A model generated the notes under the pieces. The model was not told where the DNA came from. It worked only from the letters and a program-made list of their open reading frames with translations, and did not search any database. From Nitrospinales bacterium (GTDB taxonomy: Bacteria; Nitrospinota; Nitrospinia; Nitrospinales; JAJDAT01): a stretch of DNA of 64,000 bases. Of the stretch, positions 42,992 through 54,949 are shown piece by piece (position 1 is the first letter of the stretch; each line of letters starts with the position of its first letter). The position numbers and the translations under genes were made by a program. The stretch spans positions 1,716-65,715 of the forward strand of contig JBHHYO010000008.1 of the NCBI GenBank assembly GCA_046757665.1, in the 5' to 3' direction.

Positions 42992-43704
42992 TCCCTGAAA
43001 GATTGGGGATTGGGCTTGGTAAATCCATACAGATTGTTTTCAATAATATAATGTTCTACCTGGGGTGGCAAGAAGTTTTTGATTGAGGCTTTTTGGTGAA
43101 TGCGGTCACGGATTTGACATGATGAAACAGCCATCGGCGTTTTGAGTTGGAAAAAAACCAGGCGGCGCCCGTTGTCCCGTCGGCGGTATTCCCGCATGTT
43201 TTCGCCGGATGAGGGCGGTTCATACGGCGACGGTTCCTGAAACAGGCGTCGCAAACTTTCCGCGGGGTCGCCGGGAGCTTCCCCGGGACGCGCGGCGACC
43301 AGGACATGAACCAGTTCCAGAATACGCCGGTAATCTTTCCAGGCGCCCAACTCCCGGAACGTGTCCGACGCCATGATCAGATAAAATTCCTTTCGCACCC
43401 CCCCCTCCGCCCGCAGGGCTTCCAGCGTGTCGACAGTATAGGAAACTCCCTTGCGTTGCAGTTCGATGTCGGACAGGCCAAACGCGGGTTCGTCGAGAAG
43501 GGCCAGGCGAAGCATTTCCCGCCGGTGGCGGGCAGGGGTGACGGGTTGATCCCGTTTGTGCGGCGACACGTGGGCGGGAACAAACACAACGCGGTCCAGC
43601 CGGAACCGCTCCCGCGTTTCCGCCGCCAGACGCAGATGCCCATAATGCACCGGATCGAAACTCCCGCCCAGCAAACCCTCATGTTCGGTCCCGCCTTCAC
43701 TCAT
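42988..43704 (-). CDS. nadD: nicotinate-nucleotide adenylyltransferase
   Basis: LLGGSFDPVHYGHL, SYTVDTL, SSCQIRDRI. 4-nt overlap with rsfS. Confidence 0.9.
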   Translation of the reverse strand: MSEGGTEHEGLLGGSFDPVHYGHLRLAAETRERFRLDRVVFVPAHVSPHKRDQPVTPARHRREMLRLALLDEPAFGLSDIELQRKGVSYTVDTLEALRAEGGVRKEFYLIMASDTFRELGAWKDYRRILELVHVLVAARPGEAPGDPAESLRRLFQEPSPYEPPSSGENMREYRRRDNGRRLVFFQLKTPMAVSSCQIRDRIHQKASIKNFLPPQVEHYIIENNLYGFTKPNPQSFRE

Positions 43705-52585: not shown

Positions 52586-54949
52586 ATGAGGAGTAGCCGG
52601 AGGCGGTTTAACATCACTTTTACCCCTGTACGCTTTGTGACGACCGAACAAAAAACAGCCGCCATTCGCCTCATCCCCGCCAACGCGCGCCGGGCCGGCC
52701 TGGCCGACGGCGCGGCCGTCTTGTTGTTGACCGCCCTGTGCCTCGAGTTCTTTGCCCCGGTACTGTTTCAGGATAAAACCTTTTTCTACCGGGACGTCCC
52801 CATGGCGGCCTATCCGATGAAGCTCTTCCTGTCCAGGGCGTACCATGAGGGTTTTTTGCCCTTCTGGAATCCGGCGCTTTTCTGCGGAATGCCCTTCATG
52901 GCCACCCTGCATCCCGGCGCGTTTTACCCGCCGAGCGCGATTTTTTTTCTGGACGATTTTGTCGCCGCCTTCAACTGGTATTTTGTCCTGCATCACCTGT
53001 TTCTGAGCGTTTCGGTTTTCGCCCTGTGCCGTTGTTGGCGGCTTTCCGTGGGGGCCGCGTTGTGTTCGGCGCTGACCGCTTTCGCGGGCGGATATTTTTT
53101 GTCGTTGATGAATATGTACAACCATTATCAGTCCATGGTCTGGTTGCCGGCGATTTTCCTGTTCTTTCAAAGGTATCTGCAAACGGCGGGAACGGGGAAC
53201 TTTCTGGCGGCCGTTGCCTGCCTGACCTGCCAGACCCTGGGGGGTAGCCCGGAAAACAGCGTCATGACGGTTTGCCTGCTGGGCGCGCATTCGATCCTTG
53301 TCGTTCCGGCGGCGGAGACCCGCGTTGCCGGGACGTTGCGCCGCGCCGCGGCCCTCGGCGCGCTTGTCTTGCCGTCGCTGGGCCTCGCCGCGCTCCAGCT
53401 TCTGCCGACTTACGCTATCATCAAGGACTCCGTCAGAAACACCGCCCTGCTGTTCTCCGACCACGCCAAATGGTCCCTGGAACCTTCCACCCTGGCCACC
53501 CTGCTCCTGCCGAAAAACTTCGCCGGGTTCATGGAACGGACGCATCCCATGGCAGTTTCCTTTTTGCAAAGTGTGTACATGGGAATTTTCCCCCTGGTTT
53601 TTCTGGGTCTCGGATGGTTGCTGTGGAAGGACAAGGCCGTCCGGTTTTGGAGCGCCGTATTTTTTGTGGGAATTTTTCTGGCGCTGGGGAAATACAACCC
53701 CATGTATGAACCCTTGTACCACTGGGTTCCCTTTCTGGGAATATTCCGCTATCCGGAAAAGTTTTATTTTCTGTCGGCGTTCAGCCTGGTTTTTCTGACG
53801 GGCCACGGCATCGACGCGGCCATGCGCCGGGTTGCCGAGGGGACGCTCGATCTCCGCAAGGTCTGGGGAGTCCTTCTGGGCCTGGGCGTGCTGACGGGCC
53901 TGGCGGACCTGGCGAACAGGCACGCGGGCGCGAGCGGGCTCGCTCTGACTCTCGGGTTTCTGCTGTTGTTCGGTTTTGCCTGGTCGATGCTTCACTTCAA
54001 AAAACTCCGCCCGGCGGTAATGAAAACCCTGCTGACGGCGCTGATCCTCTCCGACCTGCTCTGGCGACATTACATGCTGACGCCGATGATCGACAAAAAC
54101 TTTTTCCTGCAGGAACCGGGGCTTCTGAAAAAGGTCCAGGCCCCGGCGGGAGAGCTGTACCGGATTTATTCGGGGCCGATCACCGGCAAGATCGATTTCG
54201 GCCAGTTCGTGCGGGCGCCGAACCTGTTGCTGAGCCACATTTTCGCCAAGGAAGAGTTGCGTCCCAATCTGGGGACGATCTACGGCCTGAATTACGTCAA
54301 CGGGATGCCCGGCGTGGAACTGCATTTCATTTCCCTGCGATACGAGATATTCAAACACTCGCCGCCGGAGAAGAGGCGGCGGATTCTCGAACGTAGCAAC
54401 GTCAAGTATCAGGTGTTGAGCATCGACCTTTCGGACCGGCCGGAGGATGTGCCGGAATCGTTGCCGACCGGCGTGGTGGAGTTGAAAAACGCCCTGCCCC
54501 GCGCCTTTCTGGTTCCCAAAGCCCGTGTTGAAAGTTATCCCCACCTGGTCAATCTTTTTTTCGATGAGTCGTTCGATCCCCGGAAGGAAGTGTTGCTCGA
54601 CGCGCCGCCGCCTCTTCAAATCGGCGAAGAGGCCGGATTCGAGGGCACGGTGACGGCAATCGATTACCGGCCCAACCGCGTCCGCATCCGCTCGCGGCAA
54701 AACGCCGGGGGATTTCTGGTGCTCCTGGATTCCTGGTTCCCCGGTTGGCGGGTGAAGGTGGACGGCGAACCGGGGACCCTCCTGCGCGCCGACTATTTCT
54801 ACCGCGCCGTGCAGTTGCCGGCGGGAGAACACAACGTCGAATTTTATTACGAACCCGAGGGATTCGCGGCCGGCGTCCGGATCAGCCTCGGCACACTTTT
54901 GATACTGCTCGCGGGCGCGGCCTGGCGGAGGGTTCGGCTTCGCTATTGA
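52586..54949 (+). CDS. YfhO-family polytopic membrane protein (GT-C-type glycosyltransferase-like)
   Basis: Start uncertain (TTG 52571 or ATG 52586). GFLPFWNPALFCGMPFMATLHPGAFYP. C-terminal FPGWRVKVDGEPGTLLRADYFYRAVQLPAGEHNVEFYY. The 793-aa antisense ORF is rejected. Confidence 0.65.
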   Translation: MRSSRRRFNITFTPVRFVTTEQKTAAIRLIPANARRAGLADGAAVLLLTALCLEFFAPVLFQDKTFFYRDVPMAAYPMKLFLSRAYHEGFLPFWNPALFCGMPFMATLHPGAFYPPSAIFFLDDFVAAFNWYFVLHHLFLSVSVFALCRCWRLSVGAALCSALTAFAGGYFLSLMNMYNHYQSMVWLPAIFLFFQRYLQTAGTGNFLAAVACLTCQTLGGSPENSVMTVCLLGAHSILVVPAAETRVAGTLRRAAALGALVLPSLGLAALQLLPTYAIIKDSVRNTALLFSDHAKWSLEPSTLATLLLPKNFAGFMERTHPMAVSFLQSVYMGIFPLVFLGLGWLLWKDKAVRFWSAVFFVGIFLALGKYNPMYEPLYHWVPFLGIFRYPEKFYFLSAFSLVFLTGHGIDAAMRRVAEGTLDLRKVWGVLLGLGVLTGLADLANRHAGASGLALTLGFLLLFGFAWSMLHFKKLRPAVMKTLLTALILSDLLWRHYMLTPMIDKNFFLQEPGLLKKVQAPAGELYRIYSGPITGKIDFGQFVRAPNLLLSHIFAKEELRPNLGTIYGLNYVNGMPGVELHFISLRYEIFKHSPPEKRRRILERSNVKYQVLSIDLSDRPEDVPESLPTGVVELKNALPRAFLVPKARVESYPHLVNLFFDESFDPRKEVLLDAPPPLQIGEEAGFEGTVTAIDYRPNRVRIRSRQNAGGFLVLLDSWFPGWRVKVDGEPGTLLRADYFYRAVQLPAGEHNVEFYYEPEGFAAGVRISLGTLLILLAGAAWRRVRLRY

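Follow-up and report, generated by a model that had tools for sequence, protein, structure and literature searches.

What do five polytopic membrane proteins do beside two type IV pilins in a Nitrospinales bacterium? The genes in question occupy a locus at 43.7-55 kb of a 64,000-nucleotide stretch (the window) of a contig from a Nitrospinales metagenome-assembled genome (MAG). They encode the pilins Pil1 and Pil2 and the membrane proteins called here A, B, C, D and E. Pilin glycosylation is known mostly from a few pathogens, where it is carried out by PglL/TfpO, which transfer a prebuilt block, or by TfpW, an enzyme with glycosyltransferase fold C (GT-C). The best reading of the Nitrospinales locus, based on fold, motif and synteny, is that of a pilin-linked cluster of several GT-C enzymes in environmental diderms. 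The five membrane proteins are all of the GT-C type, some confidently and others probably. On balance, and with modest confidence, we think that at least some of them glycosylate pilins, Pil1 and Pil2 being the presumed acceptors.

The original prediction of two pilin genes among five polytopic proteins holds for all seven open reading frames (ORFs), in coordinates and in strand, and the public gene calls for the identical contig agree (products of 810, 445, 521, 132, 130 and 599 residues). The gene pil1 (45871-46248, plus strand) encodes a prepilin of 125 residues, about 112 when mature, and pil2 (46437-46835, plus strand) a 132-residue paralogue. Both products carry the prepilin N-methylation motif (Pfam N_methyl, E-value 1e-8; TIGR02532) and have the other hallmarks of type IV pilins, namely a class III signal peptide, a G/FTLIE motif and a hydrophobic N-terminal helix. 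Both also partially match Myxococcus PilA in NCBIfam.

Pil1 and Pil2 are 80% identical. Their final 21 residues (ATASHASSTTSYSIDSAGNVT) are the same in both, and Pil2 ends with one additional Phe. Over the last 22 codons the two genes show six synonymous and no non-synonymous differences, compared with 18 and 22, respectively, elsewhere (Fisher p = 0.022). Because all six differences are synonymous, the identity of the tails points to purifying selection; recent gene conversion as its source is ruled out by the same six sites. The motif is found again at the C-terminus of homologous pilins on two Desulfobacterales contigs (L027 and L072). Since it recurs in this way, the Ser/Thr-rich C-terminus looks like a conserved portion of the pilin family and not an appended tag. 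The identical Ser/Thr-rich tail that had drawn attention to these proteins is therefore real over 21 residues, but the idea that it is a disordered extension is rejected.

The two pilin genes form a separate unit. They are divergent from A (43697-45496, minus strand, 599 residues), with a gap of 375 bp between A and pil1, and convergent with B (46872-48437, minus strand, 521 residues). B is preceded by C (48453-49790, minus strand, 445 residues) and D (49787-52219, minus strand, 810 residues). The stop of D overlaps the start of C by 4 nucleotides and the gap between C and B is 15 nucleotides, which indicates a single operon, D-C-B, with D as the first gene. E (52586-54949, plus strand, 787 residues) is transcribed divergently from D. 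A candidate sigma-54 promoter (TGGTAT-N5-TTGC, 45783-45797, plus strand) is found approximately 75 bp before pil1. Across the window the sigma-54 consensus shows no enrichment (58 matches, 72 expected), so this site is a positional hint only. Downstream of pil1 the sequence can be read as a terminator-like GC-rich hairpin followed by a T-run (46283-46315, plus strand); pilin-accessory cassettes typically have a terminator 3' of the pilin gene (PMC11841053). No pilB, pilC, pilM-Q or pilT gene turned up when selected ORFs on either side of the locus (approximately 9.5-63 kb) were scanned with Pfam.

Fold and family of the membrane proteins

B and C had been described as unassigned, and this label is correct: neither matches a Pfam or NCBIfam family. 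B has more than 1000 homologues, and a database entry of identical sequence exists, annotated as a hypothetical protein from a Nitrospinales MAG. An AlphaFold2 model of B built with 43 sequences has a predicted local distance difference test score (pLDDT) of 88. When this model was compared with the PDB using Foldseek, the best 24 matches were all GT-C enzymes, with STT3 in first place (E-value 1.4e-7, query-normalised TM-score (TMq) 0.59) and AglB, AftA, ArnT, DPY19, AftB, AftD, EmbB and Pmt1/2 among the others. A D43xD45 motif placed directly after the first transmembrane (TM) segment is invariant in the family, and several His, Arg and Glu residues of the loops are likewise unchanged throughout. 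The C-terminal domain is predicted to be periplasmic. Sequence or profile searches of the PDB with B gave no meaningful match, and hhalign comparisons with the A, C and D/E families gave nothing significant, so it is the fold by itself that places B in this group. Judged by its modelled structure, B is a GT-C-fold glycosyltransferase of a family for which neither Pfam nor NCBIfam has a model.

C has four homologues by word-index search and 461, all distant, by exhaustive HMMER search. Its AlphaFold2 model has a pLDDT of 92.7. The top seven Foldseek matches of this model are PglB, STT3, AftA and ALG9 structures (probability approximately 1, E-value 6e-3 to 4e-2, TMq 0.33-0.46), with transporters ranking close behind. 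The residues E46-D47-G48 following the first TM segment are near-invariant, E46-D47 being kept in at least 90% of the sequences, and hhalign of the C family against the A family returns a probability of 77%. From its model, C is a probable GT-C enzyme. Structure prediction, proposed originally as a check on the GT-C fold, thus gives a clear answer for B and a weaker one for C.

A contains about ten hydrophobic segments in residues 11-414, followed by tetratricopeptide repeats (TPRs) at approximately 435-585, which are recognised by Pfam. The first loop after TM1 includes a conserved DD motif (D43-D44). The description of A as a TMTC/DUF1736-like protein with TPRs is borne out for the repeats and the multi-TM layout but not for the family, as no match to DUF1736 (PF08409) or TMTC was obtained for A or nine relatives, even at an E-value of up to 1. 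In NCBIfam, A matches TPR models only. PDB searches with the full-length protein retrieve TPR proteins only, and those with a profile of the N-terminal domain retrieve nothing. Word-index search with the membrane domain gives 1905 homologues from many phyla; among the matches listed, nearly all carry TPRs. Some members of the family match PMT_2, rarely and weakly, and several are named 'protein O-mannosyl-transferase' by JGI. It is common for one locus to have several copies of the gene.

D and E are paralogues. They match the Pfam YfhO family (PF09586) with 54.1 and 39.2 bits, respectively, against a gathering cut-off of 28.5, as do ten of ten family members tested. The assignment of both to the YfhO family, made in the original prediction, is consequently supported by score but concerns only the last 80 or so of the 835 profile positions (754-835 for D and 784-835 for E). 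The N-terminal 600 residues alone give no YfhO match, and neither protein is covered by the full-length profile. In NCBIfam, D and E match PgfM1 and PgfM2 weakly (approximately 20-25 bits for cut-offs of 1400-1500), and a PDB profile search with the D/E family gave no meaningful match. The membrane domain is related to that of A: an 85-sequence alignment of the D/E family matches the A family in hhalign with a probability of 94% (E-value 1.3e-7) over 332 columns of the membrane domain. In this comparison D70 of E, which follows TM1 and is invariant in the D/E family, is superposed on D43-D44 of A. By profile homology, A, D and E are probably of the GT-C type.

First-loop acidic residues directly after TM1, for which the original prediction had suggested a check, are conserved in all five proteins: D43-D44 in A, D43xD45 in B, E46-D47 in C and, invariant throughout the D/E family, D70 in E. 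These residues bear on a different explanation of the locus, in which the pilin-adjacent membrane proteins are non-catalytic accessory factors (chaperones or adaptors resembling TfpY/TfpZ) or are clustered with the pilins by chance. Such a role has precedent in that pilin-accessory cassettes include non-enzymatic proteins (PMC11841053), and it would be compatible with the restriction of the YfhO matches in D and E to the C-terminal end and with the lack of a GT2 gene in the locus itself. However, invariance or near-invariance of the acidic residues within each family is the catalytic signature of GT-C enzymes, and the fold of B is confident. We consider an accessory role, or a fortuitous grouping, improbable.

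Pilin genes next to B and YfhO-like genes elsewhere

Co-occurrence in relatives was among the checks suggested originally. We analysed 80 GTDB-genome loci (74 evaluable) out of approximately 570 for the B family and 80 metagenome loci with D/E-type genes (64 evaluable) out of approximately 480 for the YfhO-like family. Adjacency was defined as a co-directional pilin gene ending no more than 300 bp upstream, and the expected number was derived from how densely pilin-like ORFs occur at distances of more than 2 kb. A pilin gene is adjacent to B in 10 of the 74 genome loci (0.38 expected, Poisson P approximately 1e-11) and to a YfhO-like gene in 12 of the 64 metagenome loci (0.17 expected, P approximately 1e-18). 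The B loci of this type come from Polyangiaceae and other 'delta' lineages, Desulfobacterales, Omnitrophota and Lentisphaerae. Around B, 18 pilin-like ORFs fall within the first kb and practically none beyond 5 kb. For E-like genes, inspection by eye shows a pilin gene directly upstream in 10 of the 13 closest relatives of E. The adjacent pilins belong to at least six sequence clusters, and Pil1 of the window clusters with B-adjacent and YfhO-adjacent pilins alike.

The content of some of these loci is informative. In L090 the order is pilC, a PilS/PilR-type sigma-54 activator gene, pilA, a YfhO-like gene, a PMT_2 GT-C gene, a GT2 gene, a methyltransferase gene, a second YfhO-like gene and B. 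L089 has the same core, and in both loci the GT2 gene lies between GT-C genes. The island of L090 occupies the slot held in Pseudomonas by tfpO or tfpW, directly 3' of pilA. Short GT2 genes resembling the one at 14530 of the window are present in 22 of the 80 YfhO-like loci and in 12 of the 80 B loci. A further locus (L053) resembles the window, with the order A, pilin, pilin, A, B, and A-family genes often adjoin B. For C, wider synteny rests on two cases, among them the homologue of 40% identity described below. In close relatives where C is 79% identical the order is E, an additional spermine-synthase-like gene, D, C, B and a pilin gene. The conservation of this order, together with the GT2 and methyltransferase genes placed between GT-C genes in related clusters, is a further argument against non-catalytic accessory proteins.

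The divergent arrangement of A and a pilin gene is also found elsewhere (L171). A relative of A with 57% identity has a divergent pilin neighbour upstream and the same nadD operon as A downstream.

Two observations on gene content may be added here. The additional gene between the YfhO-like genes encodes, in L004 (5228-7300), a 690-residue protein with a spermine-synthase/methyltransferase domain; it is absent from the window. In three loci of myxobacterial type (L045, L046 and L063), a second prepilin-like ORF of approximately 140 residues with a GFTLIE-type motif is located about 1 kb 3' of B, so that B is flanked by two pilin-like genes.

A broader function could also account for the presence of several GT-C enzymes. 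The five proteins might constitute a general envelope-glycan or O-glycosylation toolkit acting on lipopolysaccharide (LPS), lipid A, exopolysaccharide (EPS) or many proteins of the periplasm and outer membrane, in which case pilins would be at most one substrate among others, or mere neighbours at a hot spot for surface structures. A number of results lean this way and weigh against a function centred on pilins. B is conserved throughout the Nitrospinota, but the orthologues of Nitrospina gracilis, of a second complete genome and of about 20 further MAGs of the phylum are solitary. In N. gracilis and in a 4-Mb Nitrospinaceae genome (L002 and L003) the B orthologue has an ETF gene on one side and the dnaA-gyrB-gyrA origin region on the other, and no pilin or YfhO gene occurs within 10 kb of these solitary Nitrospinota orthologues. 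The C homologue with 40% identity adjoins genes for YhdP and squalene-hopene cyclase, that is, envelope and lipid genes, and is not next to a pilin gene. The cluster is therefore lineage-specific within Nitrospinota. The co-occurrence expected from the original prediction holds for the B and E-like families across phyla and fails for most Nitrospinota B orthologues and for this C homologue.

A provides a second set of arguments in the same direction. Its end and the start of nadD share 8 nucleotides (43697-43704); further along, as far as position 40646, come rsfS, a dksA-like gene and a lapB-like gene. This operon is kept in relatives with 53-57% identity (L170 and L171). It suits a housekeeping envelope role for A, lapB being a regulator of LPS assembly, and the wide distribution of the A family (approximately 1900 homologues, often multicopy) fits a general function equally. 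The sharing of an operon between a TPR-containing GT-C enzyme and housekeeping genes is in itself an unusual pairing.

Other points concern the locus and the analysis. The orientation of the pilin genes in the window, convergent with B and divergent from A, differs from the co-directional order of pilA and enzyme gene seen elsewhere. No GT2 or flippase gene lies within 43.7-55 kb, the nearest GT2 gene being that at 14530. The fold matches of C are weak (best E-value 6e-3). The adjacency counts are not phylogenetically independent, though they span several phyla and pilin types. In Geobacter, xapD (GSU1501), for an exopolysaccharide transporter, lies a few genes beyond pilA (GSU1496), and pilA neighbourhoods can thus hold polysaccharide genes that are unrelated to pilin modification. 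Finally, teichoic acids and lipid A are the substrates of YfhO and ArnT-type enzymes whose function is known.

A general toolkit nevertheless leaves three features unexplained: the excess, 25- to 70-fold over background, of same-strand pilin genes immediately upstream of B or E-like genes in several phyla; the tendency of related pilin types to travel with B and YfhO-like genes; and the position of the L090 island in the tfpO/tfpW slot directly after pilA. We regard the general toolkit as possible but doubtful, and prefer a pilin-linked cluster. The placement of B and YfhO-like families directly after pilin genes in unrelated phyla suggests a widespread route of pilus glycosylation.

Relation to known systems and a possible mechanism

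The nearest known counterpart is TfpW, a GT-C pilin D-arabinofuranosyltransferase of Pseudomonas aeruginosa group IV strains (Pa5196 and PA7). It is a protein of 646 residues in which 11 TM helices are combined with a DDX motif in the first, periplasmic loop and a TPR domain at the C-terminus; it is encoded beside pilA and uses a polyprenyl-phosphate sugar in the periplasm (bioRxiv 10.1101/2020.04.19.049825). A fits this published description with about ten TM segments, a first-loop DD motif and C-terminal TPRs, and the B and E-like genes of other phyla lie directly 3' of pilA, as does tfpW. There are also clear differences. A is divergent from pil1 across the 375-bp gap and overlaps nadD instead of lying 3' of pilA; TfpW is a single enzyme, compared with five GT-C enzymes of four families in the Nitrospinales locus; and no genes for D-arabinofuranose synthesis (DprE1/DprE2) were seen in the window.

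Protein O-glycosylation by YfhO-type enzymes is known from streptococci (PgfS/PgfM1/PgfM2 in S. mutans and GtrB/PgtC2 in S. pyogenes and S. pneumoniae). In these systems the GT-C enzyme transfers sugars extracytoplasmically from GT2-made undecaprenyl-phosphate sugars to Ser/Thr-rich, often C-terminal, regions of proteins associated with the membrane (PMC12041528). The weak matches of D and E to PgfM1 and PgfM2 recall these systems, as does the GT2 of the window, whose best NCBIfam match is PgfS. Streptococci, however, are monoderm, and what they modify is adhesins, PrsA and penicillin-binding proteins instead of pilins. The match of D and E to the YfhO profile is confined to its last 80 or so positions, and their scores are far below the PgfM cut-offs. 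The acceptors are Ser/Thr-rich regions, whereas the pilin C-terminus in the window appears to be a conserved family part and not disordered. The original prediction held that no system of this type built on YfhO proteins had been described. This needs to be qualified because the streptococcal systems exist (PMC12041528); in the titles and abstracts listed (three of six papers that contain both terms) we found no report that ties YfhO-like proteins to pilins or describes a YfhO-type system in a diderm. Pilin glycosylation by a GT-C enzyme encoded next to pilA (TfpW) is likewise already known. The streptococcal precedent for YfhO-based protein glycosylation is one of the points that weaken the present reading.

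The glycosylation of lipoteichoic acid by CsbB/YfhO and GtlA/GtlB in Firmicutes follows the same logic of a GT2, a flippase and a YfhO-type GT-C enzyme. Teichoic acids are polymers of the Gram-positive wall, and Nitrospinota lie outside the Gram-positive group. In addition, the GT2 at 14530 has no predicted membrane anchor and is unlinked to D and E. The complete three-component set (GT2, flippase and GT-C) is absent from the window locus; GT2 genes accompany GT-C genes in L089 and L090.

Other GT-C systems offer partial parallels. Eukaryotic TMTC1-4 and PMT O-mannosyltransferases and bacterial PMT_2 proteins resemble A in having a multi-TM GT-C-like domain with an acidic pair in loop 1 and, across the membrane, TPRs, but A and its nine relatives lack DUF1736 and PMT_2 matches in the family are rare and weak. 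PglL/TfpO/PilO also glycosylate pilins in the periplasm, and tfpO is located directly 3' of pilA; these enzymes belong to another family, characterised by Wzy_C, and transfer a preassembled block from an undecaprenyl-diphosphate glycan. No Wzy_C domain was detected by Pfam in any of A to E. The mycobacterial Emb/Aft/PimE enzymes resemble the locus in comprising several GT-C enzymes, each forming one linkage, which work extracytoplasmically with polyprenyl-phosphate sugars, and the structures matched by B and C include AftA, AftB, AftD, EmbB and PimE. Their acceptors, however, are lipoglycans and arabinogalactan, and they have no detectable sequence homology to the window proteins. The pilin-modifying Ogt of cyanobacteria was considered as a relative and rejected, being a cytoplasmic GT41 enzyme and not GT-C.

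A possible mechanism can be modelled on TfpW and on the streptococcal GtrB/PgtC2 and PgfS/PgfM systems, with donor, acceptor sites and order of action proposed by analogy. A cytoplasmic GT2, encoded within the cluster in related loci and elsewhere in this genome, possibly at 14530, would load a sugar onto polyprenyl phosphate. The lipid-linked sugar would be flipped across the inner membrane, at whose periplasmic face the first-loop acidic residues of the GT-C enzymes would take part in its transfer onto Ser/Thr residues of membrane-anchored Pil1 and Pil2 before polymerisation. One or two of the GT-C enzymes would initiate the glycan, with the acceptor held by the TPRs of A or by the periplasmic domains of B, D and E. 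The remaining enzymes would extend or branch it sugar by sugar, unlike the transfer of a prebuilt block by PglL/TfpO. Such a division of labour is suggested by the presence of four GT-C families, as in the mycobacterial Emb/Aft sets.

A wider hypothesis, which we put forward tentatively, is that pilins and GT-C enzymes of the B and YfhO-like clades, both uncharacterised, form a mobile cassette in many diderm phyla of the environment (Nitrospinota, Desulfobacterota, Myxococcota, Omnitrophota, Lentisphaerota and others), and that this cassette uses polyprenyl-phosphate sugars to build a pilin O-glycan stepwise in the periplasm. With no greater assurance, it might be seen as a third, non-en-bloc way of glycosylating pilins that differs from PglL/TfpO and has a wider range than TfpW. 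Pilin glycosylation shields P. aeruginosa from pilus-specific phages (bioRxiv 10.1101/150227), and the cassette is possibly a widespread defence of this kind.

If the pilin-linked reading is correct, it would give a function to two unannotated families, that of B (more than 1000 members) and the divergent YfhO-like clade. It would extend YfhO-type protein O-glycosylation beyond Firmicutes into diderms and would show pilin-glycosyltransferase cassettes to be widespread among uncultured phyla of the environment, Nitrospinota (the marine nitrite oxidisers) among them. It would also provide a natural set of stepwise periplasmic protein O-glycosyltransferases usable for glycoengineering.

The sugar module at 14530 and other neighbours

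Could the GT2 at 14530-15246 (plus strand) supply the donor? It is a candidate polyprenyl-phosphate sugar synthase, and its best NCBIfam matches (PgfS first, then ArnC and PpgS) place it among transferases of the polyprenyl-phosphate kind. CsbB/GtrB-type enzymes are anchored in the membrane through C-terminal helices. No TM segment is predicted for the GT2 at 14530, and its earlier description as CsbB-type is therefore apt for the kind of enzyme but not for the anchor.

Its proposed partnership with the membrane proteins of the pilin locus is not supported. The gene lies 30 kb away, at the head of a low-GC (45-50%) module of its own (14530-24067). This encodes RfbF (glucose-1-phosphate cytidylyltransferase), a CDP-glucose 4,6-dehydratase, a second short-chain dehydrogenase/reductase (SDR) and RfbH (3-dehydrase), the joint occurrence of which indicates a CDP-3,6-dideoxyhexose pathway. 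The module also holds a B12-radical-SAM enzyme, a flippase-like LPG_synthase_TM protein and a membrane protein, X. Donor, flippase and transferase seem to be combined here in one self-contained unit, which would attach a 3,6-dideoxyhexose to a lipid carrier so that it can be transferred in the periplasm; the unit was possibly acquired horizontally. The GT2 more plausibly serves this module than the pilin locus, which adds to the points raised above against a pilin-linked function, although the lipid-linked sugar could be shared between the two.

X (21342-23015, plus strand) has 557 residues, with approximately nine TM segments and a soluble C-terminal domain. It belongs to no Pfam or NCBIfam family and does not match the A, B, C or D/E profiles. 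X could be a sixth GT-C-type transferase that works with the GT2 and the flippase beside it. Of two genes for B12-binding radical-SAM methyltransferase-like proteins, less than 8 kb apart, one lies within the sugar module (19494-21197, plus strand) and the other just upstream of it (12173-13999, minus strand).

Several other genes of the window may be mentioned. Directly beside E are two tandem genes for GNA1162-like lipoproteins (54965-57449, minus strand), a pair that also flanks the E homologue in L004. The first of these lipoproteins has a C-terminal SPOR (peptidoglycan-binding) domain and a weak LpoB-like match. Two tandem small proteins with Lcl C-terminal domains are encoded at 61661-62809 (minus strand), and a fragment of POTRA_2 (ShlB-type) is found at 60233-60793. 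On the other side of the locus, a PAS histidine kinase gene is followed by one for a response regulator with a GGDEF domain (34179-36876, plus strand) and then by a gene for a FlaG-like small protein (37857-38282, plus strand); this set points to cyclic di-GMP signalling near genes for surface structures.

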